Below are positions 6,106 to 53,499 of a DNA stretch of 53,542 nucleotides, piece after piece. The stretch is from Chloroflexota bacterium (lineage in GTDB: Bacteria; Chloroflexota; Dehalococcoidia; JACPPY01). The number at the start of each line of letters is the position of its first letter. Position 1 is the stretch's first letter. A program made the position numbers and the translations under genes. The notes under the pieces are model-generated. The model worked only from the letters and a program-made list of their open reading frames with translations. It ran no database searches and was not told the origin of the DNA. The stretch is taken from positions 18,656 to 72,197 of the forward strand of contig JBFMDE010000001.1 in NCBI GenBank assembly GCA_040754215.1. The letters run 5' to 3'.

Positions 6106-7908
6106 TCAGGACTTGTCCGGTCTCAGGCTCAAGTGAAGCTCGGCCATCTGCTCCTCAGATACCGCCGACGGGGCGTCGGTCATCAGGTCAACTGCGTTTT
6201 GGTTTTTGGGGAATGCGATTACCTCTCTTATGGTCTTTTCACCCGCGAGCAGCATCACAAGTCGGTCTATGCCCGGTGCTATCCCGCCGTGTGGTGGAGC
6301 CCCATACTCGAAAGCCTCCAACATGTGTCCGAAGCGGGCCATTATTTCCTCCTGTTTGTATCCGAGAAGGCGGAATATCTTGTCCTGGACTTCCCTGGTG
6401 TGTATTCGGATACTCCCACTGGAGAGTTCATACCCGTTGCATACTATGTCATAGTGTCTGGCTCGGACCTTTTCCGGCGCTGTGTCGAGCAACGGAATGT
6501 CCTCCTCCACGGGTGCAGTGAACGGGTGGTGCATCGGCTCCCAGTGACCCAGGTCCTTGTTCCATTCCATCAGAGGGAAGTTGAGGATGAAAACGAAGCC
6601 GAGCATCCTCGGGTCGGCAAGGCCAAGTCGCTGGCCCATTTCAGCCCTCAAGTCACTGAGGGCCCGGCGCACCATGTCTGTGCTTCCGGCCACAATCAGT
6701 ACCAGGTCTCCAGGCTTCGCCTCCATGCGCTTCGCCAGCTGACGAAGGTCCTCTGTTGAAAGGAACTTGGTCAGGCTCGACTTTACCGTGTCCAACGTCA
6801 GCTGGTCTGGATTCACCGGGGCGTCCCCGCTGACGGCCAGGGTGATGAGGCCTTTCGCGCCTCGCATCTTGACGAACTCCGTGAGCTCATCCAGTTGACG
6901 GCGAGAGTAGGAGCCACAGCTCGGAACACAGATTCCCTTGACCGCGCCGCCTTCAGCGAGGGCACTACGGAAGGGGGCAAAGTCGGTTCGAGCGGCTATG
7001 TCAGAGATATCACGTAGCTCGAGGCCGAAGCGCACATCCGGCTTGTCAACGCCGAAGCGCTCCATGACATCCGTGTAGGAGAGCCGTGGGAAAGGCTTCA
7101 CTAGCTTCATATCAGGGCATATTGTCTCTACCAAGGAGGTGAACAACTCTTCCAGCAGGTCGAGGATGTCTTCCTCATCAACGAAGCTCATCTCCAGGTC
7201 CAACTGGGTGAACTCTGGCTGGCGGTCGGCACGCAAATCCTCGTCCCGGAAGCAGCGGGCGATCTGATAATACTTTTCGACCCCGGCAACCATGAGGAGC
7301 TGTTTCAACTGCTGTGGTGACTGCGGCAGGGCGTAGAACTTCCCTGGCTGCACCCGGCTTGGCACCAGGTAGTCGCGTGCGCCCTCTGGAGTGCTCTTGA
7401 TGAGTATCGGCGTTTCGACCTCGATGAACCCTCTGGCATCAAGGAAGTCGCGCATGAATTTGATTACCCGGTGCCTGAGGACAAGGTTGTCCTTCATGCG
7501 CGGCCGGCGCAGGTCCAGATAGCGATATTTGAGGCGCAGGTTTTCGTCTATCTCTATGTCTTCATTTATGTAAAAGGGAGGGGTCTTGGACGGATTCAGA
7601 ATCCGTAGTTCTGTGGCTATGACCTCTACTTCCCCGGTGGGCAGGTTCGGGTTTTCCGTGCCCTTTGGACGTACGGATACTTTACCCTTGACCTGTACCA
7701 CACATTCGTTGCGCAGCTTCTGTGCCCCTTCGTGTGCCCTGGGCGAGGTGTCGGGATTGACCACCACCTGGACGATACCTTCCCTGTCGCGGAGGTCAAG
7801 GAAGATCAGGCCCCCGTGGTCACGACGTCGGTGTACCCAACCCGCAAGTGTCACCTCGGCGTCAGCACTCTGCCTAGTAAGCTCACCGCAACTTTTCGTC
7901 TTCAGCAA
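6106..7908 (-). CDS. aspS: Aspartate--tRNA ligase
   Basis: CGELT...GWVHRRRDHGGLIFLDLRD, FRDEDLRADRQPEFTQLD and GGIAPGIDRLVML class-II motifs. I place the start at TTG 7908 (GGAG 6 nt upstream, giving a 600-aa product). The longer ORF to 7989 would run through the predicted promoter. Confidence 0.93.
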   Translation of the reverse strand: MLKTKSCGELTRQSADAEVTLAGWVHRRRDHGGLIFLDLRDREGIVQVVVNPDTSPRAHEGAQKLRNECVVQVKGKVSVRPKGTENPNLPTGEVEVIATELRILNPSKTPPFYINEDIEIDENLRLKYRYLDLRRPRMKDNLVLRHRVIKFMRDFLDARGFIEVETPILIKSTPEGARDYLVPSRVQPGKFYALPQSPQQLKQLLMVAGVEKYYQIARCFRDEDLRADRQPEFTQLDLEMSFVDEEDILDLLEELFTSLVETICPDMKLVKPFPRLSYTDVMERFGVDKPDVRFGLELRDISDIAARTDFAPFRSALAEGGAVKGICVPSCGSYSRRQLDELTEFVKMRGAKGLITLAVSGDAPVNPDQLTLDTVKSSLTKFLSTEDLRQLAKRMEAKPGDLVLIVAGSTDMVRRALSDLRAEMGQRLGLADPRMLGFVFILNFPLMEWNKDLGHWEPMHHPFTAPVEEDIPLLDTAPEKVRARHYDIVCNGYELSSGSIRIHTREVQDKIFRLLGYKQEEIMARFGHMLEAFEYGAPPHGGIAPGIDRLVMLLAGEKTIREVIAFPKNQNAVDLMTDAPSAVSEEQMAELHLSLRPDKS

Positions 7909-21578: not shown

Positions 21579-21771
21579 ACTTCCTCCTCAACTCTCTCGA
21601 CTCTGACTCCCGATTCGGAGTAGTTAATCGGCTGTCGCAGCTACTACGCTGAGCTCGGTTGGCCAGTCCTGACGACCGTTCGAGCCTGTGTTGCCATAGG
21701 TACAGACAAGAGCTGCTTGCCACCATGGGACAGTACGGTCGGCGCGCGAGGTAAAAGGGTGCCCCTTGCTT

Positions 21772-30840: not shown

Positions 30841-32547
30841 TTGAGCACGGTAAGACGGGCATACTTCTACGCCGTATCACTGGTGACACTGGTGGTGTCA
30901 TCGTGGGGCATTGGCATCCTGTTGCGGTTGCTCCTGGACCTGCTTTTTTCCCGCACTACCATATCTGTTACACCGGGGTTCTTCCGCGACCAGCTTAGCC
31001 TAGGACTGGCGATGGTAGTCATAGCCGGCCCCATCTGGTTCATCCACTGGCGAGTGGCGCAGAGACATGCGTGCTGTGATTCCGGCGAGGCAGGGGCAGC
31101 ACTGCGGAAGCTACATCTGTGCCTGGTCCTGACGGCGTCCTCGCTCACCGCCCTAATGACCGGCGTGGGCGTGCTGCACTGGCTACTTGGGGGGCTCTCA
31201 GCCACGGAGTTCCAAGCCGGAACACTCGCTGCCTTCATCGTCTCACTTGGCGTCTGGTACCACCATTGGCGTGTAGACCTCGCAGATGGAGAACCCTGCT
31301 CTAGAGGTAAGACACTACAGCGCTGGTACTGGTACACCGTCTCGGCGTGGGCCCTCGTCCTCTTCGCCAGCGGTGTGATAAACGCACTCGGCATCATGCT
31401 CCAGACTTCAGGCGTCTGGGGAGGAGAGTCTATCGTCCAGGGCCCCTTGTGGAGCGCCGACGTGAGGACGCGGGTGGCATCACTGCTCCTGGGATTGCTC
31501 TGGTGGTGTTTCCAATGGCTGTGGACGGCACGCCGCGACATCGGCTCTGTACTGCGCCAGGTGTACCTGTACTTGTTCGCCATACTCAGTGGGGCCATTG
31601 CCACATTGGTGTCTCTATCTATCACGTTGTTCCAGTCGTTGAAGTTCGGCCTGGGAAGTCGTGGCAGCTCTGGAGAGCCATATTTCCAGTTTCTCAGTTG
31701 GACCTTACCGGCCATGGTCGTGGGGCTCGCTGTATGGGTGTACCATTGGCAGAAGGTCAAGGAAGAGGCGATGGCTAACGAGGGACGACGGTCATCGGCT
31801 CGCAGGGTCTACTACTATCTTCTCTCGGGTGTAGGGCTGGGGGCTGCGTTAGCAGGGCTGGTGGTGCTGGTTGGACTCTTGCTCGACCTGCTGTTAGGGG
31901 CACTTGACCCGTCGCAAGTGATGGCTACTACGCCCGGATGGCGGCGTGACCCGTTAGCGCTTTTTGCAGTGTTGATGTTGGTGGGAAGCGCGATATGGCT
32001 GTACCACTGGCTGGGCATGCAGCGCGAAGCAACAGAAAAGGACGTCACCGAACGCGGAGCGCGGTCACGGCGGGTATACCTCTATACCTTCCTGTGCCTG
32101 GGTATCGTTGCGCTGGTCGCCAGTCTGGTGAACATCGTCTATCGGCTACTTGCTGGTGGGCTGCAGGGCACTCCACTGCTGAGCGTCCTGCAGGATACGA
32201 AGTGGAGCCTGCAGGTCTTTCTCGTCGCTGCACCAACGCTGGCCTACCACTGGAGGGTACTGAGAGAGGACCATGGTGTGGGAGCCGAGAAGGCAACCGC
32301 GGAGAAGGTGGTCGTTGCCGTGATTGACGATAGCTCACGGCTAGCCCTGGTCCCCAGGCTACAGACTGCACTGGGCACTCGCATCAGGGTACTCTCTATA
32401 CAGGGGGAGAAGGCAGGGCCGAGTCTTGTGCTTTCAGATGAGGAGCTACGGTTGCTGGCCCGTGATGTATTGGCGTCCCCGCATGAACGATTGCTGCTTC
32501 TGGTCCATGGGACAGAGGTCGAGCTGTACCCGTACCGTGAGGCGTAG
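30841..32547 (+). CDS. 12-TM membrane protein built from six tandem two-helix repeats, plus an ~85-aa C-terminal soluble domain
   Basis: Six units each start with a basic-aromatic motif (RRAYFY, RKLHL, QRWYWY, RQVYLY, RRVYYY, RRVYLY) and end with W-x-Y-H-W-basic (WFIHWR, WYHHWR, CFQWLW, VYHWQK, LYHWLG, AYHWRV). TTG start 7 nt after GGAGG. Confidence 0.6.
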   Translation: MSTVRRAYFYAVSLVTLVVSSWGIGILLRLLLDLLFSRTTISVTPGFFRDQLSLGLAMVVIAGPIWFIHWRVAQRHACCDSGEAGAALRKLHLCLVLTASSLTALMTGVGVLHWLLGGLSATEFQAGTLAAFIVSLGVWYHHWRVDLADGEPCSRGKTLQRWYWYTVSAWALVLFASGVINALGIMLQTSGVWGGESIVQGPLWSADVRTRVASLLLGLLWWCFQWLWTARRDIGSVLRQVYLYLFAILSGAIATLVSLSITLFQSLKFGLGSRGSSGEPYFQFLSWTLPAMVVGLAVWVYHWQKVKEEAMANEGRRSSARRVYYYLLSGVGLGAALAGLVVLVGLLLDLLLGALDPSQVMATTPGWRRDPLALFAVLMLVGSAIWLYHWLGMQREATEKDVTERGARSRRVYLYTFLCLGIVALVASLVNIVYRLLAGGLQGTPLLSVLQDTKWSLQVFLVAAPTLAYHWRVLREDHGVGAEKATAEKVVVAVIDDSSRLALVPRLQTALGTRIRVLSIQGEKAGPSLVLSDEELRLLARDVLASPHERLLLLVHGTEVELYPYREA

Positions 32548-34636: not shown

Positions 34637-35347
34637 GTGACCCCTCGCTGGCACTGCCAGCCTGAAGGCACCAGAGATTTGGCTACCATATTACTGCTCA
34701 CCACCGATCAACAGAAGCTGTCAGCTTTACAGACTGACCTGGGGCCTCTTGGATACGTGTGCTTGCATGCGGCCGACAGCAAGACGTTGACAAGGTCATT
34801 GACGAAGGAGCCCGAGATAGTGGTCCTTGATGGAACAGCGTTCTCCACCGATTCAGAAGTGTGGCAATGGCTCTCCACCTCCTCCGGCACAAAGTCGATT
34901 CCTGTCCTGATACTGGCACCTGAGAGAGCGCTACAGGATTGGGAGCTCAATCAAGAGATAGACGATTTCCTAATTGAGCCCTACCGGAAGGCCGAACTGG
35001 TCTCCAGGGTGAGGCGGTTGCTCCGAAAGGCAGGGAAGTCAAGTGAGGGGGAGGCCATAACGCGCGGAGCACTGACCGTAAATAGTGCGAACTACGAGGT
35101 CAGGGTTGGGGAGCGGCGGGTAGACCTTACCTACCGGGAGTACCGGTTGCTCGAATACCTGGCGCGTAACCCGGGCCGCGTTATCACCAGGGAGACGCTG
35201 TTGAACAAGGTTTGGGGGTTTGACTACTTCGGCGGCGACCGCACCGTGGATGTACATATCAGGAGGCTGCGCAGCAAACTGGAAGACGCTGAGCACATCT
35301 TCATAGACACGGTGAGAAACGTGGGATACCGCTTCCGGGAGCAGTGA
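34637..35347 (+). CDS. OmpR/PhoB-family winged-helix regulator with degenerate (pseudo-)receiver domain
   Basis: C-terminal LTYREYRLLEYLARNPGRVITRETLL...DRTVDVHIRRLRSKL...VRNVGYRF. The receiver has TT for the acidic pair, A for the conserved Thr, and E for the conserved Lys. Start uncertain (GTG 34637 or TTG ~34679). Confidence 0.8.
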   Translation: MTPRWHCQPEGTRDLATILLLTTDQQKLSALQTDLGPLGYVCLHAADSKTLTRSLTKEPEIVVLDGTAFSTDSEVWQWLSTSSGTKSIPVLILAPERALQDWELNQEIDDFLIEPYRKAELVSRVRRLLRKAGKSSEGEAITRGALTVNSANYEVRVGERRVDLTYREYRLLEYLARNPGRVITRETLLNKVWGFDYFGGDRTVDVHIRRLRSKLEDAEHIFIDTVRNVGYRFREQ

Positions 35348-35457
35348 GTTGTCTCTCAGGCTAGAGGTTCAGGTAACATTCTCGAAACATAAGCCATGTA
35401 TCCTTCGCGCCAGAGCAGATAACTGGAAAGAACGACGAATTCAGGAGGACTATAGCA

Positions 35458-36801
35458 GTGGCACCCACTGACAGAGAACAGGCCAAGGAATATGTGCTGA
35501 AGAAAGCGAAGGAACTGGATGTCAAGTTCATTCGCCTCTGGTTCTCCGACATACTGGGGTTCCTCAAAAGCTTCGCCATCACGGTCGAGGAACTGGAGAC
35601 AGCACTGGAACGTGGCATGGGGTTCGACGGGTCCTCGATCGAGGGGTTTGTCAGGATAGACGAGAGCGACATGGTGGCCCACCCCGACCCCACCACCTTC
35701 CAGATAGTTCCCTGGCGCCCTAGAGAACACCGCGCTGTGGCCAGGATGTTCTGCGATATCACCTGGCCAGGAGGGAAGCCTTTCGAGGGTGACCCCAGAT
35801 TCGTTTTGAAGAGAAACCTCCAGCGGGCTGCAGAAATGGGCTACACTTTCTACATCGGCCCCGAGCTGGAGTTCTTCTACTTCCCCAATTCAAAGGAGCC
35901 CAAGTTCTTGGATAACAGCGGCTACTTCGACAACACCCCGGAAGATGTCGCTACCGACCTGAGGCGTGAGACCATCCTCATACTGGAGGAAATGGGTATC
36001 GGCGTTGAATACAGCCATCACGAGGTGGCTCCAAGTCAACACGAGATAGACCTGCGCTACACCGATGCGCTGACCATGGCCGACAACGTGATGACGCACC
36101 GGGCGGTGGTGAAGCAGGTAGCACAGAGGCATGGACTTTATGCTACCTTCATGCCGAAGCCGGTGTTTGGAGTCAACGGCAGCGGCATGCACTGCCACAT
36201 GTCCCTGTTCAAGAGCAACAGGAACGCCTTCTTTAGCCCCAATGACCCCTACCATCTCTCTAGGGAAGCCAGGGCGTTCCTCGCCGGGCTGTTGAGGCAC
36301 GCGCCAGAGATCACCGCCGTGACCAGTCAGTGGGTGAACTCCTACAAGCGTTTGGTTCCCGGCTATGAGGCACCGGTTTACATCACCTGGGCGAGACGCA
36401 ACCGTGCCGACCTGATCAGGGTGCCGGAGTACCAGCCAGGCAGAGAAGATGCGACCAGGCTAGAGTACCGGTCGCCCGACCCCGCCTGCAACCCTTACCT
36501 TGCCTTTGCCGTGATGCTGGCAGCAGGACTTGAAGGGGTCGAAAAGGGGTACGAACCACCGCCACCGGTGGAGGAGAACGTGTACGAGATGAGCGAGGAG
36601 GAGCGCGAGAGGCGAGGTATTGACACGCTCCCAGGTAACCTCTATGAGGCGGTGTGCCTTGCTGAAGGAAGTCAGGTGGTACGCAAGGCCCTTGGAGAGC
36701 ACGTGCTCACCTCCTTCATTGGCAACAAGAAAGTCGAGTGGAACAACTACCGCACCCACGTGACCGACTTCGAGATATCTAGGTACCTTCCTCTCCTATA
36801 G
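35458..36801 (+). CDS. glnA: Glutamine synthetase, type I
   Basis: FDGSSIEGF, EVAPSQHEI, GSGMHCHMSLF, and NSYKRLVPGYEAP motifs, 447 aa. GTG start 9 nt after AGGAGG. Confidence 0.95.
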   Translation: MAPTDREQAKEYVLKKAKELDVKFIRLWFSDILGFLKSFAITVEELETALERGMGFDGSSIEGFVRIDESDMVAHPDPTTFQIVPWRPREHRAVARMFCDITWPGGKPFEGDPRFVLKRNLQRAAEMGYTFYIGPELEFFYFPNSKEPKFLDNSGYFDNTPEDVATDLRRETILILEEMGIGVEYSHHEVAPSQHEIDLRYTDALTMADNVMTHRAVVKQVAQRHGLYATFMPKPVFGVNGSGMHCHMSLFKSNRNAFFSPNDPYHLSREARAFLAGLLRHAPEITAVTSQWVNSYKRLVPGYEAPVYITWARRNRADLIRVPEYQPGREDATRLEYRSPDPACNPYLAFAVMLAAGLEGVEKGYEPPPPVEENVYEMSEEERERRGIDTLPGNLYEAVCLAEGSQVVRKALGEHVLTSFIGNKKVEWNNYRTHVTDFEISRYLPLL

Positions 36802-36901: not shown

Positions 36902-36929
36902 TCGACATATGGCCACCTTGTGGTATATT
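36902..36929 (+). promoter_or_regulatory. Sigma70-type promoter with extended -10 for nadE; ATG 9 nt after the -10 (leaderless candidate)
   Basis: TCGACA (36902-36907), 16-nt spacer including TG (36921-22), TATATT (36924-36929). ATG at 36938 with no SD. Confidence 0.4.
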
Positions 36930-36937
36930 CTAGTGCC

Positions 36938-38677
<1,740 letters not shown>

Positions 38678-38681
38678 CGAC

Positions 38682-39305
38682 CTAACCCGCCTGCGCCTTC
38701 TCCCCGGCAAACTCCAGGAAATTGGCCAGCAGCATCAGTCCTTGCTTTCCGCTCTTTTCCGGGTGGAACTGCGTGGCCACGAGGTTGTTCTTTACCAGCA
38801 GGCTACAGAAGGTCACCCCATACTCCGTGTCTCCAGCGACTGTGCTCTGGTCATGAGGAGAGACATAGTAGCTGTGCACGAAGTAGAAGTCCGAGTTGTC
38901 GGGGATGCCACAGAACACCTGGTGTTGCCTTCTCTGATGCACCTGGTTCCATCCCATGTGTGGGACCTTCAATCCTTCAGGTAGCCGTCGTACCTCTCCC
39001 GGGACTACATCCAGGCATGGTTGGCCCCCGCTTTCCTCCGACGTGGTCAGGAGTATCTGAAGACCCAGGCAGATGCCCAGGAAAGGTACACCCCTGGCGA
39101 TTGCTTCCACAATGGCACTTTTCAAGCCAATGGCCTCGAGCGCTGCCATGGCATGGCCAGCGGCGCCAACCCCAGGAAGAACCAGTGTCCGGGCCCTCTC
39201 GATAGCACTACGTTCTGAGGTCACCACCGGGGCACATCCCAGCTTGGTCAGAGCCTTGACCACGCTGGAGAGGTTACCTGCGCCATAGTCAATGACAGCG
39301 ATCAT
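38682..39305 (-). CDS. hisH: Imidazole glycerol phosphate synthase glutaminase subunit HisH-type amidotransferase
   Basis: MIAVIDYGAGNLSSV, GICLGLQ (catalytic Cys), VPHMGWN, FHPEKS. No hisF or hisA adjacent. Confidence 0.85.
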   Translation of the reverse strand: MIAVIDYGAGNLSSVVKALTKLGCAPVVTSERSAIERARTLVLPGVGAAGHAMAALEAIGLKSAIVEAIARGVPFLGICLGLQILLTTSEESGGQPCLDVVPGEVRRLPEGLKVPHMGWNQVHQRRQHQVFCGIPDNSDFYFVHSYYVSPHDQSTVAGDTEYGVTFCSLLVKNNLVATQFHPEKSGKQGLMLLANFLEFAGEKAQAG

Positions 39306-39318
39306 CGAAGTCTCGCCG

Positions 39319-39537
39319 CTATCCCCCGCCCTTTCCCTTTCTGGTGCTACCGGTAACCGAGACCTCGATGACCTTGCCACAGTTCGGGCACGTCACCTGC
39401 AAGGTTAGGGTCTGCCGCATCACCCTCTCTACAAGGGTGGTGACGACCGAATCAATGTTGTCCAGCCGCTGGTCGAGCATCTCCAGGCGTTCAGCAATGC
39501 GCTTCTGGTCCAACCCCTCAGTGCTCTCCGTAGCCAA
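39319..39537 (-). CDS. Small hypothetical protein (72 aa; helical N-half, single CPNCG motif)
   Basis: TTG start 6 nt after AAGGAGG. Ends 13 nt before hisH. No recognisable family. Confidence 0.4.
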   Translation of the reverse strand: MATESTEGLDQKRIAERLEMLDQRLDNIDSVVTTLVERVMRQTLTLQVTCPNCGKVIEVSVTGSTRKGKGGG

Positions 39538-39590: not shown

Positions 39591-39636
39591 AAAAAGGGGG
39601 AGGCACTCACCATCGAGAGTAGCTGGCACCTCTCCC
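39591..39636 (-). terminator. Rho-independent-type terminator after the 102-aa gene
   Basis: Minus strand: GGGAGAGGTGC ... GCCTCCCCC (9 bp with one A/C mismatch) followed by TTTTT. Confidence 0.4.
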
Positions 39637-39664
39637 TTGTCGTTCGCAGACGATGGGCTGCCGC

Positions 39665-39973
39665 CTATAGAGACTTCTCCTGGACTCCCAGGGCCTCTAA
39701 CTCTGCCTTGTCCGACTTTATCTTGTCCTCTATCAACTGTGAGACGATGCGCTGCATATGTTCTCGCGCCGCCTCCCTTGCTGCCGGTGATGACCTCACT
39801 GCCTCCTTGGCCGCTTTCCATTCTTGGTCTGTAAGTTCAGCCAGCCTCCTCTGGTCAAGGGGCATCCCCTCTTCAAGAGCCTTCTCGGCAGCCTCCACCA
39901 CCCGGCTCGTCACCGCCCGCTTCATCCTGTCAAAGGAGATTACCTCCTCTACTGCGTATGGACGACTGGCCAT
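39665..39973 (-). CDS. Hypothetical helical protein (102 aa)
   Basis: ATG 39973 preceded by GGGAGGAGACAGGAG. Charged, Ala/Glu-rich sequence. No recognisable domain. Confidence 0.4.
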   Translation of the reverse strand: MASRPYAVEEVISFDRMKRAVTSRVVEAAEKALEEGMPLDQRRLAELTDQEWKAAKEAVRSSPAAREAAREHMQRIVSQLIEDKIKSDKAELEALGVQEKSL

Positions 39974-40135
39974 CTCCTGTCTCCTCCCATTCATGATTGC
40001 CACTATGATACGACCGGCCGATGCTCCTGTCAAGGGGGTATGCTATATGTTGCGGTTGCGGCTGCGAAATGCCCACTATCTTGTCCCCAGACATGCGCTG
40101 CGTTTGACACTCACACTGTCGGGTACCAGGGCATC

Positions 40136-40164
40136 TTGACATCAGCGCAATAACTGTTTATACT
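40136..40164 (+). promoter_or_regulatory. Near-consensus sigma70 promoter of the glutamate-synthase operon
   Basis: TTGACA (40136-41), 17-nt spacer, TATACT (40159-64), 39 nt upstream of ATG 40203. A GTTTA-N11-TAAAC inverted repeat (40156-40176) overlaps the -10/TSS. Confidence 0.6.
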
Positions 40165-40202
40165 GAGGCGGTAAACGGTTGCCGATGACCTAGAGGTGTA
40201 CC

Positions 40203-40658
40203 ATGGTCTATGTTCAATTGAACGAGCAGGTGTGTATCAGCTGTGGGCTGTGCCGCGTTCATTGTGCGGTACAGCACTCGCGCTCGCGGGATCTGCTGAA
40301 GGCGTTCAAGTCAGAAACGCCGCGCCCTTCGGCACGCCTGAGATTGGATGCGAGCGGGCCTGTTTCCTTGGCAATACCGTGCCGTCACTGCATCGAGCCA
40401 TGGTGTGTCTATAGCTGCCTCACAGGGGCGCTCTCCCGCGATGTTGCCACGGGGAACGTGAGCCACGACCCGAAGAAGTGCATCGGGTGCTGGACCTGTG
40501 TGCTCTCTTGCCCCTATGGTGCCATCTTCCCCGACCCGGCAACGGGGAAGGTCATGAAGTGCGACCTCTGTCCAGGTCGTGAAACGCCGGCGTGTGTCGA
40601 GAACTGTCCCAACGAGGCCCTGTCATACCACATCTTAGAGGCAGGAAATGGGCTCTGA
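40203..40658 (+). CDS. 4Fe-4S ferredoxin-domain protein (multiple-cluster)
   Basis: CISCGLCRVHC, CRHC...C, CIGCWTCVLSCP, and CDLCPGRETPACVENCP cysteine motifs. Confidence 0.8.
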   Translation: MVYVQLNEQVCISCGLCRVHCAVQHSRSRDLLKAFKSETPRPSARLRLDASGPVSLAIPCRHCIEPWCVYSCLTGALSRDVATGNVSHDPKKCIGCWTCVLSCPYGAIFPDPATGKVMKCDLCPGRETPACVENCPNEALSYHILEAGNGL

Positions 40659-41985
40659 GCACCCCGAATACCGTTACGTGATAGTGGGCAACTCCGCAGG
40701 GGGTATCGGTGCTGCAGAGGCCATTCGCGAGGCGGACAGTGACGGCAGCATGCTCATAGTATCTGATGAGCCCTATCCTGCCTACTCTCGCCCCATGATA
40801 TCCGAGTACCTTGCTGGCGAGAAGGAGATTGATGACATCCTGTTTCGCCCTCGGGGGTTCTACGCTGAGAAGAGAATCGAGACCCTGCTGAGTAAGAAGG
40901 CCAGCGCACTCGATGTTGCGCGCCGGATACTGGTGATGGAGGACGGCACTGCCCTCTGCTGGGAGCATATCTTGCTCGCATGCGGCGGCTCACCGATATT
41001 CCCCAGGATGACCGGGAGTGAGAAGATGGGCGTCTTTACCTTCACTACACTGAGGGATGCCGACAGGATGTCCGCTTACTTGCACCGCGTGCGGAGCGCC
41101 GTGGTCATTGGTGGTGGACTCATCGGTGTGAGTGTTGCCGAGGCATTGGTCAAACACAGCGTACAGGTCACCATTGTGGAGATGAGAGACCATGTCCTGA
41201 GCCTGATGCTGGATGAGGAGACTTCAGAGATGGAGGCAGCCGCCATTCGCAACAAGGGTGTATCCATCGTCACAGGACATACTGTCGTTGCTATCAACGG
41301 TCTGCCCGGGGACAGTGACCATGTCGGCGGCGTGGTCCTCGATGATGGGACTGAGCTGACCTGCGACATGGTGGTCGTGGCTATAGGGGTGTCGCCGAGG
41401 CTTGAGCTGGCGAAGAGTGCCGGGATAAGGGTCAACCGGGGCATCTTGGTCGGCCATGACATGCAGACCAGCCACAATGGCGTGTACGCCTGCGGAGACG
41501 TAGCAGAGGCCTACGACTTCGCCTATGGTACTGAGCGCCTGACACCGATATGGCCGAATGCATATCTCGGAGGCAAGGTTGCCGGGTACAACATGGCAGG
41601 TCAGAAAGCATCCTACCCCGGCGGCACAGCCATGAACTCGCTCAAGTACTTCCACCTACCCATCGTCTCCGCTGGCCTGGTGTCCCCTGTCGAGGGTGAT
41701 TACGAGGTGTTATCACGGACGCAGGACAGTGTGCATCGCAAGGTGGTGCTGAAGGACGGACGAATAGTGGGAATGGTATTCGTCTTGGCGATCGAGAATG
41801 CTGGAATAGTCTACGGCCTGATGAGGGACGGTGTGATTGTGTCCGACTTCAAGCAGAAATTGCTGGATGATGACTTCGGACTGGCCTCGCTGCCATATGA
41901 GTTGCGTCAGGAACGGCTGAAGGCATCAACTGTCAGAAAGATAAGGTCATATTACGAACCCTTGGCCACCGGTGCAGCGGGCTGA
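40648..41985 (+). CDS. FAD/NAD(P)-dependent pyridine-nucleotide-disulfide-family oxidoreductase
   Basis: YVIVGNSAGGIGAAEAI and AVVIGGGLIGVSVAEAL Rossmann motifs, ACGDVA. Overlaps the ferredoxin gene by 11 nt. Confidence 0.8.
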   Translation: MGSEHPEYRYVIVGNSAGGIGAAEAIREADSDGSMLIVSDEPYPAYSRPMISEYLAGEKEIDDILFRPRGFYAEKRIETLLSKKASALDVARRILVMEDGTALCWEHILLACGGSPIFPRMTGSEKMGVFTFTTLRDADRMSAYLHRVRSAVVIGGGLIGVSVAEALVKHSVQVTIVEMRDHVLSLMLDEETSEMEAAAIRNKGVSIVTGHTVVAINGLPGDSDHVGGVVLDDGTELTCDMVVVAIGVSPRLELAKSAGIRVNRGILVGHDMQTSHNGVYACGDVAEAYDFAYGTERLTPIWPNAYLGGKVAGYNMAGQKASYPGGTAMNSLKYFHLPIVSAGLVSPVEGDYEVLSRTQDSVHRKVVLKDGRIVGMVFVLAIENAGIVYGLMRDGVIVSDFKQKLLDDDFGLASLPYELRQERLKASTVRKIRSYYEPLATGAAG

Positions 41986-42020
41986 GAGTCAGTCACTATG
42001 GGAAAAGGTGGACGGCTAAG

Positions 42021-43160
42021 ATGAAGAACATAGAGCAGTGGAACAACCCTTACAATGAAGACAAAGTGATCGCCGCATGTGGTCTGTTCGGAATAATGGA
42101 CACCAGCGGCCGGGCGTTCAGCGGCCAGGATGTGGTCAAGGGAATAACCAACATGCATGACCGCTCCAACGGCCTAGGTGGTGGTTTTGCCGCTTACGGT
42201 ATATACCCAGACTGCTCCGACCACTATGCCTTTCACGTGATGTACCTTACGCCCCGGGCACGAGAGGAGACGGAAGCCTTTTTTACCACCAGCTTCCGCC
42301 TGGCTAGCTCACAGGAACTGCCGACGCGCAAGACAAAGAACATCGTAGACCCTCCGCTGATGGTCAGGTACTTCATTCCACCCGACGGCGCTCGCAACAT
42401 GGACTTCGTTGACGATGACTGTGTGACCAGGACGGTGATGCACATAAACTACTGCATAGAGGGTGCCTTCGTGTTTTCCAGCGGGAAGAACATGGGTGTG
42501 TTCAAGGGTGTCGGCTACCCCGAGGACATCGCCAACTTCTTCAGGCTGGATGAGTACTGCGGCTACATGTGGGTAGCGCACGGCAGGTTCCCCACCAATA
42601 CCCCGGGGTGGTGGGGAGGCGCCCACCCCTTTAACATCCTTGATTGGACCGTAGTACACAATGGAGAGATCTCCTCCTATGGCATCAATCGGCGCTTCCT
42701 GGAGATGTATGGATACCGATGCACGATGCAGACTGATACTGAGGTGGTGGCTTACGCGGTCGACCTGCTGGTAAGGAAGCACCACCTGCCCATCGAAGTC
42801 GCGGCCAGGGTCATGGCACCGCCATTCTGGGAGGAGATGCAGCGTCAGTCAGACAAAGAACGGGCCTTGAATATGGCATTGCGACAGACCTATGGAAGCC
42901 TGCTGATGAACGGCCCGTTCACGGTCATCGTCGCCCATCAGGGCGAGATGATGGGGCTCGGAGACCGTATCAGGCTGCGCCCTCTGACCGCTGCTACCAA
43001 GGATGACCTCGTCTTCCTCTCCTCCGAGGAGTCAGCCATCCGCCTGGTATGTCCGGAGTTGGACAGGGTCTGGACTCCTATGGGTGGTGAGCCGGTCATA
43101 GCCAGGTTGAAAGAGAAACGAGAACAGGAGGCAATGGCAGCAGTACGCAGCACTGCCTGA
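42021..43160 (+). CDS. Class-II (Ntn) glutamine amidotransferase, archaeal-type glutamate synthase domain 1
   Basis: AACGLFGIMD nucleophile-Cys region, HGRFPTNT, and VVHNGEISSYG motifs. Confidence 0.85.
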   Translation: MKNIEQWNNPYNEDKVIAACGLFGIMDTSGRAFSGQDVVKGITNMHDRSNGLGGGFAAYGIYPDCSDHYAFHVMYLTPRAREETEAFFTTSFRLASSQELPTRKTKNIVDPPLMVRYFIPPDGARNMDFVDDDCVTRTVMHINYCIEGAFVFSSGKNMGVFKGVGYPEDIANFFRLDEYCGYMWVAHGRFPTNTPGWWGGAHPFNILDWTVVHNGEISSYGINRRFLEMYGYRCTMQTDTEVVAYAVDLLVRKHHLPIEVAARVMAPPFWEEMQRQSDKERALNMALRQTYGSLLMNGPFTVIVAHQGEMMGLGDRIRLRPLTAATKDDLVFLSSEESAIRLVCPELDRVWTPMGGEPVIARLKEKREQEAMAAVRSTA

Positions 43161-43172
43161 ACGAAGAGTGGC

Positions 43173-44678
43173 GTGAAAACATACCTGGCGCCAAAGTTCT
43201 CGGTAGGACGAGACGAGACTCGTTGCATCGGCTGTAAGGCCTGTGTGAGCCAGTGCAGCTTCAAGGTGCATGCCTACGACGAGCATGACGACCGAGTGTG
43301 TTCTGCCTCGGAGAACTGCGTTGGTTGTCATCGCTGTGCTACGTTCTGCCCCACTGGCGCTATCAGCATTCGCCACAACCCCCTTGAGTACCGTAACAAC
43401 GAGTACTGGAAGGCCGAGGCTATCGAGGACATCATCAAGCAGGCCGAGACCGGGGGCATGCTACTCACCGGTATGGGCAATGACAAGCCCTATCCCATCT
43501 ACTGGGACCATCTGGTGCTCAACGCCAGCCAGGTGACCAACCCCTCGATTGACCCTTTGAGGGAACCCATGGAGCTGCGGACTTTCCTCGGTGCCAAGCC
43601 CGACATGCTGCAGGTGGACCCTCAGGCGGTGGAACTCAAGACCCTACTGGCGCCGCAAGTGCCGATAGAGGTCCCTGTCCTTTTCAGCGCCCTGTCGTAC
43701 GGGGCTGTCAGTCTCAATGTACATGAGTCTCTGGCCAGGGCAGCCTCTGAAACAGGAACCTTGTTCAACACCGGGGAAGGTGGGCTGCACCGCAAGCTGT
43801 ACAAGTATGGACCCAACACCATCGTCCAGGTGGCTTCAGGACGCTTCGGTGTACATCCCGAGTACCTCGACGTGGGACGGGTGATAGAAATCAAGATCGG
43901 CCAGGGGGCCAAGCCAGGCATCGGTGGGCACCTACCTGGCGAGAAGGTAAGTGCGGATGTCGCCGCCACTCGCATGATACCTAAGGGCACCGATGCTCTG
44001 TCCCCGGCTCCCCACCATGACATCTACTCCATTGAGGACCTGGCACAGCTCATCTACGCGCTGAAGGAGGCGACGAACTACACAAAGCCGGTCAGTGTCA
44101 AGATAGCGGCTGTCCACAACTCAGCGGCCATCGCCAGCGGCATCGCCCGTGCCGGTGCAGACATCATAGCTCTGGACGGCCTGCGCGGCTCCACTGGAGC
44201 GGCACCAAAGGTCATCAGGGACAATGTAGGCATCCCCATTGAACTGGCGCTGGCTTCCGTGGATACAAGGCTGAGACAGGAAGGCATCCGCAACCGCGTA
44301 TCACTTGTTGCTGCAGGCGGCATCAGGAGTAGCTCAGACGTGGTCAAGGCGATAGCGCTGGGTGCCGATGCAGTGTACATCGCCACTGCAGCATTGGTCG
44401 CACTGGGTTGCAGGGTGTGCCAGCAATGCCACACCGGAAAGTGCGCCTGGGGGATCTGCACCACAGACCCCATCCTGAGCAAACGGGTCAACCCCGATAT
44501 TGGCACCAGACGTCTTGTCAACCTGCTGCGGGCATGGAGCCTGGAGATCAAAGACATGCTCGGAGGCATGGGAATAAACGCCCTGGAGAGCCTGAGGGGC
44601 AACCGTCTTCATCTCCGTGGCGTTGGCCTGACAGACACCGAGTTGGCGGTACTCGGCGTCAGGATGGCAGGCGATTAG
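43173..44678 (+). CDS. Glutamate synthase FMN-binding (GltB central/synthase) domain protein with N-terminal 2x[4Fe-4S] ferredoxin domain
   Basis: CIGCKACVSQC and CVGCHRCATFCPTGAI, then EIKIGQGAKPGIGGHLPG, SPAPHHDIYSIEDL, GLRGSTGAAP, and the CxxCxxxxC cluster motif CRVCQQCHTGKC. Confidence 0.9.
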   Translation: MKTYLAPKFSVGRDETRCIGCKACVSQCSFKVHAYDEHDDRVCSASENCVGCHRCATFCPTGAISIRHNPLEYRNNEYWKAEAIEDIIKQAETGGMLLTGMGNDKPYPIYWDHLVLNASQVTNPSIDPLREPMELRTFLGAKPDMLQVDPQAVELKTLLAPQVPIEVPVLFSALSYGAVSLNVHESLARAASETGTLFNTGEGGLHRKLYKYGPNTIVQVASGRFGVHPEYLDVGRVIEIKIGQGAKPGIGGHLPGEKVSADVAATRMIPKGTDALSPAPHHDIYSIEDLAQLIYALKEATNYTKPVSVKIAAVHNSAAIASGIARAGADIIALDGLRGSTGAAPKVIRDNVGIPIELALASVDTRLRQEGIRNRVSLVAAGGIRSSSDVVKAIALGADAVYIATAALVALGCRVCQQCHTGKCAWGICTTDPILSKRVNPDIGTRRLVNLLRAWSLEIKDMLGGMGINALESLRGNRLHLRGVGLTDTELAVLGVRMAGD

Positions 44679-44720
44679 TCATCCCGGAAGGACCGCGTTA
44701 TTCGGGAGAAGGCGACCACC

Positions 44721-45500
44721 ATGGTTCCACGATCAGCACATCAGGACCCAAACGCAGACCAGGTTGTCCAACTGGATGCCGCAGGGCTCCACTACAGGCA
44801 GTTGAACGAGTTGGTGCGTGCCACAGTGGCCGGTGGAATGCGGAAGATAAAACTCCTCAATGTGCACGGCCAGAGGTACATCGGTACTGGCCTTGACCTC
44901 GCCGTAGACATCGAGGTCTTTGGAACGCCGGGCAATGACCTGGGTGCCTTCATGAGGGGTTCCCGCATCCTCGTCCACGGCAATGTACAGGATGGATGCG
45001 GGAACACCATGGATGATGGCTACATCACAGTTGAGGGAAGGGCAGGAGACATCCTGGGACTGGCAGCCCGTGGTGGGAAGATATTCGTCAGGGACAATGT
45101 GGGGTATCGTACCGGCATTCATATGAAGGAATACCAGGAGAAATGTCCCATTGTGGTTATTGGCGGCACAGCCCAGGACTTCCTCGGGGAATACATGGCC
45201 GGAGGCATCATAGTCCTCCTCGGGCTGAACCTGGACAGCGGCGAATTTCACCAGTGTCGCTTCGTGGGCACTGGCATGCACGGCGGCGCCGTCTACATTC
45301 GGGGCCAGATGAGGGAAACGCAGTTGGGCAAAGAGGTGGGCGTGCAAGAGCTGAGCCCAGAGGACAAGGAGTTGCTGCGAGGCTTGATTATGGAATTCTC
45401 TGGACATTTTGGCTATAATGGTGACGAAATCCTATCCGGCACGTTTATCAAACTCATTCCCCGTCACCTGCGCCCTTATGGCAGGTTGTACGCGTACTAG
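44721..45500 (+). CDS. Glutamate synthase GXGXG-motif (alpha-subunit C-terminal) domain protein
   Basis: Repeated G-x-G-x-G beta-helix pattern: VFGTPGNDLGAFMRGSRILVHGNVQDGCGNTMDDGYITVEGRAGD... Confidence 0.85.
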   Translation: MVPRSAHQDPNADQVVQLDAAGLHYRQLNELVRATVAGGMRKIKLLNVHGQRYIGTGLDLAVDIEVFGTPGNDLGAFMRGSRILVHGNVQDGCGNTMDDGYITVEGRAGDILGLAARGGKIFVRDNVGYRTGIHMKEYQEKCPIVVIGGTAQDFLGEYMAGGIIVLLGLNLDSGEFHQCRFVGTGMHGGAVYIRGQMRETQLGKEVGVQELSPEDKELLRGLIMEFSGHFGYNGDEILSGTFIKLIPRHLRPYGRLYAY

Positions 45501-45534
45501 GTTGGCGTAGCTGTGACTGTGATCGGTTGTAGTT

Positions 45535-46530
45535 ATGATCGTCCAAAGCGCTCGCGAAGTTGAACGGAAGGTCATCTCCATCCTCAGGGTTCTCAACGAT
45601 AACCCTCGGCCTGTTGGCGCCAGGATCATCTCCAGGGAACTTAAGCATCACGGAGTAGACCTCACGGAACGGGCTGTGAGGTATCACCTCAAGTTCATGG
45701 ATGAGCGAGGACTAACCCGGCCTTCTGGCAACGATGGCAGAACTATCACGGAGCGAGGAGCGGAAGAGCTCCGAAATGCACTGGTCACTGACAAGGTCGG
45801 CTTCGTCATCAACCACATAGAGATCCTGGCCTACCGTACCACATTCGACCCTAACACCACCTCCGGCGACATCGTCATCAACGTGTCTTTCTTCCCGCGT
45901 GCACGGTTCAAGGATGCCCTGAGGGCGATGCGCCCTGCTTTCAAAGCAGGTTTGTGTGTCAGCGAGCTGGTAGCGGTGACAGGTGAAGGAGAGAGGCTGG
46001 GACAGGCGCTGGTGCCACATGGCAAGGTCGGGTTTGCCACCGTTTGCAGCATCACCACAAACGGAGTGCTGCTCAAGGCTGGCATTCCCATGGGTTCACG
46101 GTTCGGCGGCATACTGGAGATTCGCGACTCGCGGCCGCACCGCTTCGCTGAGCTGATTAACTACGAGGGCTCTACACTTGACCCTTCCGAGATATTCATC
46201 AGCGGCAGGATGACCTCGGTGGCGCGGGCAGCAACAAGCGGCGAGGGCAAGGTGCTGGCCAATTTCCGTGAGATACCGGCGCAGTGCCGTGAGACCGCCC
46301 AATCAGCCATTGCGGCACTGGAGAAGGCCGGAATTCGAGGGCCGATAGCAATGAGTGGCGTGAGCGAACCGGTGTGTGAGATTCCGGTGGGACTCAACCG
46401 GATCGGCATAGTACTGCTTGGCGGACTGAACCCGGTGGCTGCAGCCGAGGAGTCTGGTGTGGGTGCGAGCAGCACAGCCATGGCCGGCGTGATGGAGTAC
46501 AAGAAGCTCGTCAGTTTCTGGGAACTGTGA
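45535..46530 (+). CDS. nrpR: NrpR-like transcriptional regulator (winged helix + one NrpR/DUF128 regulatory domain)
   Basis: ISILRVLNDNPRPVGARIISRELKHHGVDLTERAVRYHLKFMDERGLT wHTH, then STLDPSEIFISG and GKVLANFREIP motifs that I associate with the NrpR domain. 34 nt after the previous gene. Confidence 0.65.
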   Translation: MIVQSAREVERKVISILRVLNDNPRPVGARIISRELKHHGVDLTERAVRYHLKFMDERGLTRPSGNDGRTITERGAEELRNALVTDKVGFVINHIEILAYRTTFDPNTTSGDIVINVSFFPRARFKDALRAMRPAFKAGLCVSELVAVTGEGERLGQALVPHGKVGFATVCSITTNGVLLKAGIPMGSRFGGILEIRDSRPHRFAELINYEGSTLDPSEIFISGRMTSVARAATSGEGKVLANFREIPAQCRETAQSAIAALEKAGIRGPIAMSGVSEPVCEIPVGLNRIGIVLLGGLNPVAAAEESGVGASSTAMAGVMEYKKLVSFWEL

Positions 46531-46599
46531 TAGCTCATCGAAGGAACAAACGGCCAGAGAGAAGCGACCGATAGTCAATCGCAACTAAGGAGGTGTGTT

Positions 46600-46854
46600 G
46601 TGCCTGAAGTGGAGATTGGTGCAGTAAGCGATTTCTTCCATAGGGTGATGGCAGCCGGTATTCAACTCACAGGTACGCTGTGTGTTGGCGACAAGATTCA
46701 CATCAAGGGGCATACTACGGACATGGAGTTGGTGGTCTCCTCGATGCAGATACAGAACAAGGACGTGAAAGAGGGCAAGCCGGGTGAGGCAGTGGGCGTC
46801 AAGGTACCCGATAGGGTGAGGCGAGGAGACAAGGTATTCAAGGTAACAGCCTGA
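46600..46854 (+). CDS. Small EF-Tu-domain-2-like beta-barrel protein (translation elongation factor-like protein family)
   Basis: VGDKIHIKGHTTDMELVVSSMQIQNKDVKEGKPGEAVGVKV. GTG start after AAGGAGG. Confidence 0.6.
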   Translation: MPEVEIGAVSDFFHRVMAAGIQLTGTLCVGDKIHIKGHTTDMELVVSSMQIQNKDVKEGKPGEAVGVKVPDRVRRGDKVFKVTA

Positions 46855-46926
46855 GAGTCCAGGGCTGCTCAGACTTTCCTCTCACCAGCCGATGTCCTCT
46901 CGGCTGATGCTCATAGCCGAGTGTGC

Positions 46927-47394
46927 TCAGGGCAGGCTCTTCAGCAGGTTGACCATCTCGATTGCAGACACAGCCGCAGCAAAGCCCCTGTTGCCCTCTT
47001 TGGTACCAGCACGTTCGATAGCCTGTTCCAGTGTATCTGCGGTGATGACCCCATAAATGACTGGTACCCCGGACTCGAGACCTACTCTGGCAACCCCTCT
47101 GCTTACCTCGGCAGCGACGTACTCAAAGTGCGGTGTCGCACCACGAATGACGGCCCCGAGGCAGATGACTGCCTGGTACTTGCCGGATTGAGCCAGCTTA
47201 CGCGCAACCAGCGGTATCTCGAAACAACCCGGCGTCCGGGCGATGTCTACATCCTCGTCCTTCACACCATGCCGGGACAGTGCGTCCTTTGCTCCTTCCA
47301 AGAGGCGGGTGGTGATAAATTCATTGAAGCGGGCTACCACGATGCCAAACCTCAGTCCCGCACCCAACAGTGTGCCTTCAAACTGTTTGCCCAT
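46927..47394 (-). CDS. ribH: 6,7-dimethyl-8-ribityllumazine synthase
   Basis: [20 protein letters not shown], and [14 protein letters not shown] motifs. ATG 2 nt after the ribBA stop. Confidence 0.9.
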
Positions 47395-52892: not shown

Positions 52893-52968
<76 letters not shown>

Positions 52969-53012
52969 CTCATTTTTGAAGGTACGAGGGAGGGGCAGGC
53001 CCATCCTTGATA

Positions 53013-53021
53013 TGGTACAAT
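53013..53021 (+). promoter_or_regulatory. Extended -10 promoter (TGgTACAAT) upstream of the zinc-finger mini-ORF
   Basis: ataTGgTACAATag, 22 nt upstream of ATG 53043. Identical 9-mer to the one at 11457-11465. Confidence 0.35.
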
Positions 53022-53042
53022 AGCAAGCAAGGGGGTGGAGAT

Positions 53043-53189
53043 ATGGCACCAGGATCAGAGATAGTAGAATGCCCTACGTGCAAGGGTGAGGGCATGATAC
53101 GCCACTGCGGGCAGGCTGTTGTTTGCTGGAGATGCAAGGGTTTGGGCGAGCTGGACAGGGACGAGGCGGCCAAGCCGGCGACGGCCTGA
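53043..53189 (+). CDS. 48-aa DnaJ-type zinc-finger mini-protein (two CxxCxGxG repeats)
   Basis: MAPGSEIVECPTCKGEGMIRHCGQAVVCWRCKGLGELD... The SD-like GGGGGTGGAG lies just upstream of the ATG. Confidence 0.55.
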   Translation: MAPGSEIVECPTCKGEGMIRHCGQAVVCWRCKGLGELDRDEAAKPATA

Positions 53190-53220
53190 GCTCAGCACCC
53201 AGGTTGTGTCCGAGGGCCGT

Positions 53221-53309
53221 GCCGAAGTGGCGGAACTGGTAGACGCGACAGTCTCAAAAACTGTTGAGGGGCAACTCTCGTGTCGGTTCGAGCCCGACCT
53301 TCGGCACCA
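53221..53309 (+). tRNA. tRNA-Leu (anticodon CAA), long variable arm, CCA encoded
   Basis: Acceptor GCCGAAG/CTTCGGC, anticodon stem-loop ACAGT-CTCAAAA-ACTGT, variable arm TGAGGGGCAACTCTCGTG, T arm GTCGGTTCGAGCCCGAC. Confidence 0.93.
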
Positions 53310-53336
53310 CACTTTGTCCGAGACCCTGCCTCATGT

Positions 53337-53410
53337 TGCCGAGTTGTGTAGTGGTAGCACGGGGGACTTTGGATCCCCTAGCCCAGGTTCGAATCCTGGC
53401 TCGGCAGCCA
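53337..53410 (+). tRNA. tRNA-Gln (anticodon TTG), U1:A72, CCA encoded
   Basis: Acceptor TGCCGAG/CTCGGCA, anticodon stem-loop GGGGA-CTTTGGA-TCCCC, T arm CCAGGTTCGAATCCTGG. Confidence 0.9.
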
Positions 53411-53424
53411 CACACCCCACTCAT

Positions 53425-53499
53425 TCCCCGATAGCTCAGCGGTAGAGCGGGCGGCTGTTAACCGCTAGGTCGTAGGTTCGAATCCTACTCGGGGAGCCA
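53425..53499 (+). tRNA. tRNA-Asn (anticodon GTT), CCA encoded
   Basis: Acceptor TCCCCGA/TCGGGGA, D arm GCTCAGCGGTAGAGC, anticodon loop CTGTTAA, T arm GTAGGTTCGAATCCTAC. Confidence 0.93.

Follow-up and report, generated by a model that had tools for sequence, protein, structure and literature searches.

An NrpR homologue closes a split glutamate synthase operon in a Dehalococcoidia bacterium and is predicted to act at a methanogen-type operator

The nitrogen regulator NrpR has been described from methanogenic archaea. In Methanococcus maripaludis it represses nif, glnA and glnK-amtB, and the methanococcal protein carries two regulatory domains. Methanogen NrpR operators are found at or just after the promoter core. 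In Methanosarcina, NrpRI reportedly consists of a winged helix and a single regulatory domain, with a length of around 330 amino acids (aa); it works with NrpRII, which is a regulatory domain only and is said to contact the archaeal general transcription factors. The published operator is GGAAN6TTCC (PMC2723118), and the mechanism involving 2-oxoglutarate has been described for the methanogen protein (PMC11957540, PMC9765008). The present study focused on an NrpR homologue encoded in a 53,542-nucleotide (nt) stretch of the genome of a Chloroflexota bacterium of the class Dehalococcoidia (contig JBFMDE010000001.1, positions 18,656 to 72,197), hereafter called the window. The gene is the last of a six-gene operon for a split glutamate synthase (GOGAT). 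We consider it probable that its product is a self-repressing regulator of this operon, acting through the palindromic site GGTAAACGGTTGCC and released from it by 2-oxoglutarate.

Like the protein of M. maripaludis, the window NrpR has an HTH_12 winged helix followed by a regulatory domain, is tied to nitrogen assimilation, and has a palindromic operator (predicted here) of the GGAA-N6-TTCC type. It differs in having one regulatory domain rather than two, and the setting of the operator is also different, since the methanococcal host uses archaeal TBP/TFB promoters whereas the window site lies on a bacterial TTGACA/TATACT promoter. The targets have shifted as well: those of the methanococcal protein are nif, glnA, amtB and molybdate transport genes, whereas those predicted here are of the GOGAT and glutamate dehydrogenase (GDH) type, and glnA has no site. 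In layout the window protein can be likened to NrpRI of Methanosarcina mazei and M. acetivorans, but a gene for an NrpRII-like partner was not seen in the window. MJ0159 of Methanocaldococcus jannaschii (structure 3NEK) shares the fold of the regulatory domain, but the crystallised chain is the regulatory domain only, whereas the window protein also has a DNA-binding domain. A functional analogue among bacteria is GltC of Bacillus subtilis, a LysR-type regulator of gltAB that makes the expression of GOGAT depend on how much 2-oxoglutarate and glutamate is present, but it belongs to an unrelated protein family and is a divergently transcribed activator. Finally, the orphan OmpR-type regulator GlnR of actinomycetes has a possible counterpart of its own in the window, the product of the open reading frame (ORF) at 34637, which likewise has an atypical receiver domain with a conserved Asp and an OmpR-type C-terminal domain and is encoded near a box of GlnR type upstream of glnA; it differs in that its match to the GlnR_1st profile is below threshold and its host belongs to the Chloroflexota, not the Actinomycetota.

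The NrpR ORF (45535–46530, + strand, ATG start) specifies 331 aa, and a gap of 34 nt separates it from the stop codon of the preceding gene, which encodes the GXGXG-motif subunit of GOGAT. The same spacing, and a gap free of promoters, had been reported in an earlier note on this DNA made from the sequence alone, and both agree with the coordinates and the promoter scan of the present study. The note had also recognised an N-terminal winged helix and an NrpR (DUF128) domain from the peptides ISILRVLNDNPRPVGARIISRELKHHGVDLTERAVRYHLKFMDERGLT, INYEGSTLDPSEIFISG and GEGKVLANFREIP, all of which are in the translation, and Pfam profile searches bear this out. HTH_12 (PF08461) matches residues 14–79 (45574–45771, + strand) with an E value of 3.8e-23 over profile positions 1–66 of 66, and the NrpR regulatory domain NRD1_2 (PF01995, formerly DUF128) matches residues 88–325 (45796–46509, + strand) with an E value of 2.2e-83 over profile positions 1–236 of 238. 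The latter match scores 279.6 bits, the cut-off being 25, and consists of one stretch and one copy, so that, as judged by sequence, the product is a form with a single regulatory domain. NCBIfam holds no NrpR model, and its scan gave noise alone for this protein.

The sole match by sequence in the PDB is 3NEK, the NrpR-like domain of MJ0159 (E 5e-25). An AlphaFold2 model, built from an alignment of 46 sequences and with a mean predicted local distance difference test (pLDDT) score of 85.8, was compared with the PDB using Foldseek, and the best structural match was again 3NEK (E 5e-19; template-modelling (TM) score 0.87–0.88, normalised to the target; root-mean-square deviation (rmsd) 2.7 Å). 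The modelled N-terminal domain resembles winged-helix domains, such as the DNA-binding domain of CggR (7oyk, rmsd 1.3–1.5 Å). The window protein and MJ0159 have in common the blocks I-x-Y-[ED]-G-S-x-L-D-P-x-E-[IV]-F and GGIL[EQ], and the residues that are invariant across the family (Y210, G212, D216, P217, N243, R245 and G296-G297) lie within the best conserved blocks of this pair. Because the Pfam domains, the sequence match to 3NEK and the superposition of the model all agree, membership of the NrpR family is firm.

The operon is preceded by a sigma-70-type promoter on the + strand (40136–40164; TTGACA, a 17-nt spacer and TATACT) that fits the consensus at 11 of 12 positions and is the sole promoter-like site on that strand in 39600–47000. 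From this promoter the genes, all on the + strand, are, in order: a 4Fe-4S dicluster ferredoxin-like protein (Fer4; 40203–40658; PF13247, E 5e-18); a flavin adenine dinucleotide (FAD)- and nicotinamide adenine dinucleotide (phosphate) (NAD(P))-dependent oxidoreductase (Pyr_redox_2; 40648–41985; PF07992, E 3e-57), which is likely to be the electron-input subunit; the class II glutamine amidotransferase subunit of the split GOGAT (GATase_2; 42021–43160; PF00310, E 2e-12); the flavin mononucleotide (FMN) and Fe-S subunit of the glutamate synthase (Glu_synthase; 43173–44678; PF01645, E 6e-142); the GXGXG-motif subunit of the split GOGAT (44721–45500; PF01493, E 4e-28); and nrpR (45535–46530; PF08461 and PF01995). 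Between 40165 and 46530 the scan found no further promoter-like site on the + strand, and at the junctions between the genes it found no terminator-like site on that strand; two terminator-like matches on it elsewhere in the operon, at 40242 and 45934, both fall in coding sequence. With one strong promoter, and neither an internal promoter nor a junction terminator, the best reading is that the six genes form a single operon ending in nrpR. The position of nrpR as the terminal gene of a glutamate synthase operon in a bacterium, as first noted, is thus upheld by the gene order and the single promoter; that the operon is for a glutamate synthase also stands, though its form is better called split and archaeal-style than typically bacterial, since we take its arrangement as separate polypeptides to be the archaeal type. 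The six-gene order is repeated in two related loci, L007 and L027, where the Fer4 gene also comes first.

Directly past the promoter lies the predicted NrpR operator, GGTAAACGGTTGCC (40170–40183), a palindrome of the form GGNAA-N4-TTNCC that was identified by pattern, matrix score and conservation. It starts 5 nt past the -10 element, ends 19 nt before the start codon of the Fer4 gene, and likely spans the transcription start. Compared with the methanogen GGAA-N6-TTCC, two bases differ. It is the single exact occurrence of GGNAAACGGTTNCC in the window, and 40170 is also the single window position at which the matrix score reaches 12 bits or more. A third half-site is possible: TGACC (40186–40190, + strand) forms a direct repeat of TTGCC two bases downstream, and in the extended consensus, atcGGcAAACGGTTGCCgATTnCC, the downstream positions carry information content. 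The evidence for this third half-site is weaker than that for the palindrome. Strict GGAA-N6-TTCC is missing from the upstream regions of both GOGAT and glnA, as the earlier note had stated, and its one match in the window, at 6923, is in a gene and at chance level. The note had gone on to conclude that the operator would be new, which did not find support, as GGTAAACGGTTGCC is a close variant of the methanogen type that is conserved across about 90 loci. A look-alike with two mismatches at 21750 lies between unrelated minus-strand genes, for a branched-chain permease and an LEA_2 protein, and was taken as a chance match.

The relaxed motif emerged from lining up the promoters of operons in which NrpR comes first. 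The loci compared were 42 genome loci (L001–L042; one genome per species was scanned), which belong to Dehalococcoidia and to Syntrophales/Smithella ('Deltaproteobacteria'), and the 80 best metagenome loci, none of which was used in building the matrix. Following the TTGACA and -10 elements, the Dehalococcoidia forms are AGGAAAACGGTTGCCT, AGGCAAACGGTTACCT and AGGAAAACGGTTTCCT, and the Syntrophales form is GGCAAACGATTGCC. The general form, GGNAA-N4-TTNCC, is GGAAN6TTCC with the third base of each half-site relaxed. In the orthologous promoters of L007 and L027 the site is GGAAAACGGTTGCC, at the equivalent position. The motif is found behind the -10 element in 26 genome loci, and each of the 26 listed sites begins either directly behind the -10 element of a TTGACA promoter or at most some 20 nt further on, mostly within a few nt, and precedes the operon with NrpR in it, irrespective of which other genes that operon contains. 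These operon types include Fer4..NrpR, hisF-gdh-NrpR, Glt527-fer-NrpR, NrpR-hisF-gdh, NrpR-hisF-Glt527 and NrpR-gdh; Glt527 here denotes a protein of 527 aa that has a glutamate-synthase domain and often occurs alongside NuoE/F-like and 2Fe-2S genes.

This distribution is far from what would be expected of chance matches. The intergenic sequences of the genome loci plus the window, 62.4 kb in all, contain GGNAA-N4-TTNCC 23 times, a 20-fold enrichment over 200 dinucleotide-preserving shuffles (1.15 ± 1.06, maximum 6). A position matrix was built from 23 sites of these same sequences and applied to the metagenome loci as a hold-out, and 63 of the 80 had exactly one site of at least 18 bits; counted over two strands there were 78 scoring positions, versus 0–2 in each of 20 shuffles. 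The metagenome sites are nearly always behind a TTGACA promoter and before NrpR or hisF-NrpR. Strict GGAA-N6-TTCC gives 16 matches over the genome loci and the window, almost all within genes, and it is present exactly in 19 of 95 promoter-linked sites. Since the motif amounts to the published operator with less strict half-sites, and matches it exactly in these 19 cases, it is predicted to be the operator of NrpR itself. A further observation concerns L058, in which a high-scoring site, GGCAAACGGTTACC (position 670, - strand), follows a TTGACA promoter in front of a Fer4-led operon without NrpR. The NrpR gene of that locus lies on the opposite strand at a distance of about 6 kb, and the regulon can thus reach past the operon of the regulator.

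The related loci, in which ORFs were called and clustered and Pfam was run on cluster representatives, also provide the genetic context of NrpR. A glutamate-forming gene lies no more than three genes away on the same strand for 27 of 46 NrpR genes in the genome loci and 49 of 83 in the metagenome loci, both figures being lower bounds as many contigs are short. Bacterial NrpR genes in Dehalococcoidia and Syntrophales thus usually adjoin genes for glutamate formation (split GOGAT, GltB-like or GDH), and the link to nitrogen assimilation that had been proposed for the window extends to its homologues. The arrangement GluSyn-GXGXG-NrpR of the window recurs in L007, L027, L019 and L022 and in partial form in L013 and L036, but it is a minority one, being found in none of the 80 best metagenome loci. 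Other arrangements are NrpR-hisF-gdh, NrpR-hisF-Glt527, Glt527-(ferredoxin)-NrpR and NrpR-gdh. The window protein belongs to the clade associated with glutamate enzymes, adjoining those of L001, L002 and L005. Loci L002, L005 and L037 keep the genes downstream of NrpR, which are those for a small EF-Tu-domain-2 protein and for riboflavin, with a different glutamate-synthase module upstream in L002 and L005, and so the module adjoining NrpR is exchangeable. A second clade of NrpR paralogues follows glnA or glnA-nadE (L013:9944, L018:2118, L019:9944, L022:10001 and L036:10001), in some loci together with a GOGAT-linked copy, and for this glnA-linked clade a GGNAA-N4-TTNCC site was not found.

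The commonest neighbour of NrpR is a hisF-like gene (PF00977, E 3e-83), seen beside 16 of the 46 NrpR genes in the genome loci and 53 of the 83 in the metagenome loci (L009, L014–L017, L040 and most of L043–L122). It is usually situated between NrpR and a gdh or GltB-like gene, and in L019 and L022 it comes just before GluSyn. Some loci have adjacent pairs of NrpR genes on opposite strands, either divergent (L006, at 8651 and 9881; L069; L096) or convergent (L106, L110), and in these pairs one copy is very divergent in sequence (43% identity in L006).

From the sequence, and by analogy with methanogens, we infer that NrpR binds the site, represses, and takes 2-oxoglutarate as its signal, in a circuit that could work as follows. 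The nrpR gene would be transcribed last in the six-gene split-GOGAT operon from the single sigma-70-type promoter. Its product, probably as a dimer, would bind GGTAAACGGTTGCC over the transcription start, where the third half-site may add to binding, and would block RNA polymerase, so that the operon, including nrpR, represses itself. Probably the protein would leave the DNA in response to 2-oxoglutarate, as the methanogen protein does, and a build-up of 2-oxoglutarate under nitrogen limitation would then induce the glutamate-forming enzymes. The logic of such a circuit is attractive because 2-oxoglutarate is a substrate of both GOGAT and GDH, which are encoded beside nearly all of these NrpR genes.

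Four observations weigh against this account. Identity between the modelled NrpR and MJ0159 (3NEK) is low, at 26%. A site was lacking in 17 of the 80 metagenome loci, although some of these contigs are too short to include the promoter. In the closest relative, L001, NrpR is 79% identical to that of the window, yet the locus has neither GOGAT genes nor a recognisable site; here NrpR comes right after the same small divergent gene (L001:1385–1589, compared with window 40034–45534), with the five GOGAT genes missing, and of the intergenic region just the first ~90 nt, next to the divergent gene, can be aligned. The GOGAT module was either inserted in the lineage of the window or lost in L001, and the linkage of NrpR to GOGAT is therefore not fixed. 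Lastly, the expression of nrpR in methanogens is not regulated by nitrogen (PMC9765008), and self-repression by a gene lying inside the operon it appears to control would be a departure from this. The low identity to the archaeal domain, together with the shift of the target set from nif and glnA to glutamate synthesis, could also mean that NrpR binds the site but senses another signal (glutamine, glutamate or a partner protein), or acts as an activator. We regard this as unlikely, given that the residues invariant across the family are kept in the blocks shared with MJ0159, that a site over +1 directly past the -10 element is the position of a repressor, not of an activator, and that 2-oxoglutarate, being a substrate common to all the linked enzymes, is the simplest signal to assume.

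The proposal of the earlier note was broader: NrpR might be a global nitrogen regulator, acting on glnA, GOGAT and further genes at an operator of a new kind, for which the repeat GTTTA-N11-TAAAC was one candidate. The repeat is present at 40156–40176 and overlaps the -10 element, glnA is under NrpR control in methanogens (PMC2723118), and in the window glnA, nadE, a class I amidotransferase gene and GOGAT all lie within 11 kb. As an operator, however, the repeat was rejected, as it is missing in L007 and L027, whose orthologous promoters retain the GGNAAACGGTTGCC motif, and its right arm alone overlaps that motif. Control of glnA by NrpR did not find support either. In the window the matrix gave no site of at least 12 bits upstream of glnA, nor anywhere other than at 40170, and in L001–L042 no sequence ahead of glnA or amtB scored high, or as much as 12 bits. 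Instead, glnA (35458–36801) has upstream of it GTAAC-n6-GAAAC (35373–35388, + strand), which has the form of the actinomycete GlnR box, gTnAc-n6-GaAAc (PMC10704036). Global control by NrpR through the GTTTA repeat is accordingly an improbable reading, and glnA is probably controlled separately, by a GlnR-like regulator.

The candidate for this role, a likely GlnR-like activator of glnA, is the OmpR/PhoB-type regulator with an atypical receiver encoded at 34637–35347 (+ strand; Trans_reg_C, PF00486, E 2e-29), which does not belong to the NrpR unit. In Pfam its match to GlnR_1st scored 20.3 bits, below the cut-off of 27, and there was no match to Response_reg; the receiver keeps the Asp, but at the positions of T83 and K105 of PhoB it has Ala and Glu. 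In L013, L019, L022 and L036 the region upstream of amtB holds four half-sites, GTAAC-n6-TTAAC-n6-GTAAT-n6-GAAAC. In all four loci a homologue of ORF 34637 separates NrpR from amtB, and in L019 and L036 amtB is followed by PII and glnA. This suggests a GlnR-like system in Chloroflexota. The likely picture, offered as a lead, is one in which a GlnR-like activator governs ammonium uptake and glutamine synthetase while NrpR governs the formation of glutamate. In agreement with the earlier note, no homologue of PII, amtB or NtrC was detected in the window at E ≤ 1e-3, and the same search found none of gdh or hisF; nor does the window contain a second NrpR or a nif gene.

It might be asked whether the palindrome acts in RNA rather than in DNA, as a stem-loop at the 5' end of the messenger RNA (a 5-bp stem with a 4-nt loop) that influences transcript stability or translation. 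It begins at about +1 and so would be transcribed, and a short hairpin is possible. The variable stem position (3/12) does not covary, as among 37 distinct 14-mers pairing is possible there in 19 and impossible in 18, and the commonest Dehalococcoidia form has A opposite G. Conservation also extends to the centre (ACGG/ACAG) and to the third half-site, which is outside the stem; no Rfam family matches at the motif, and the motif resembles the known DNA operator of NrpR. A role in RNA is for these reasons very improbable. Least credible of all is that another regulator, such as the GlnR-like OmpR-type protein whose gene adjoins NrpR in L013, L019, L022 and L036, binds the site while NrpR is a mere passenger gene, because the site accompanies NrpR where there is no OmpR-type gene within 7–10 kb, including almost all of the 63 site-bearing metagenome loci (L067 is the exception), and because it is an NrpR-type palindrome, whereas proteins of the OmpR family bind direct repeats such as the GTAAC/GAAAC boxes at amtB and glnA.

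The gene itself is a further member of a known family, and databases already name such proteins NrpR-domain proteins. The best homologues are 61–79% identical to the window protein, and those that bear names are from Chloroflexota/Dehalococcoidia. The clusters (at 90% identity) that match it at E ≤ 1e-5 number over 7,000, and so the bacterial NrpR family is large and already annotated. The earlier note had held that bacterial homologues were mentioned in passing only, and this agrees with the literature that could be searched in full text, which lay mostly outside subscription journals: it yielded no work on how NrpR functions in bacteria or on its operator or regulon there, and the sole relevant mention was that of Gao and Gupta (2007; PMC1852104), who noted NrpR homologues in Dehalococcoides and ascribed them, probably, to lateral transfer. 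The predicted bacterial operator and regulon appear to be new. The GC content is even over the region (0.56–0.60) and gives no compositional sign of a recent transfer.

Several other features of the window can be mentioned. Glutamine-using genes cluster around glnA and GOGAT, among them those for a glutamine-dependent NAD synthase (nadE; 36920–38677, + strand) and a class I glutamine amidotransferase (38682–39380, - strand). Directly downstream of NrpR, at 46600–46854, is a gene for an 84-aa protein with a weak match to EF-Tu domain 2 (E 3e-6, below the Pfam cut-off), which is found at the same place in L001, L002, L005 and L037; the riboflavin genes ribH, ribBA and ribD come next, on the opposite strand. 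A 568-aa protein with four copies of DUF5671 (E 9e-56) is encoded at 30841–32547. The sole Rfam matches in the window are four transfer RNA genes in a row (52893–53496, + strand); a glutamine or FMN riboswitch was not found among them.

Nitrogen control is essentially uncharted both in Dehalococcoidia, which include the organohalide-respiring Dehalococcoides used in bioremediation, and in the syntrophic Syntrophales, and the genomes of these groups are often without the classical NtrBC scheme. On balance we lean towards a scenario in which the NrpR clade of Dehalococcoidia and Syntrophales came from methanogen-like archaea with its operator nearly unchanged, and was rewired onto sigma-70 promoters as a self-repressing 2-oxoglutarate switch for split GOGAT, for GltB-like/NuoEF complexes and for GDH, while a GlnR-like regulator took charge of glnA and amtB. 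If true, this would be a two-regulator scheme of nitrogen control undescribed in any bacterium, and NrpR would be of interest as a sensor of 2-oxoglutarate in bacteria. The prediction is a concrete one that comes down to a single protein, a 14-bp site whose place in the promoter is defined, and a single candidate ligand. The scenario would also show clearly that a transcription factor together with its DNA site can function on both sides of the divide between archaea and bacteria, and an archaeal repressor and operator that can be moved onto bacterial promoters with so little change would bear on how regulators are transferred between the two domains.

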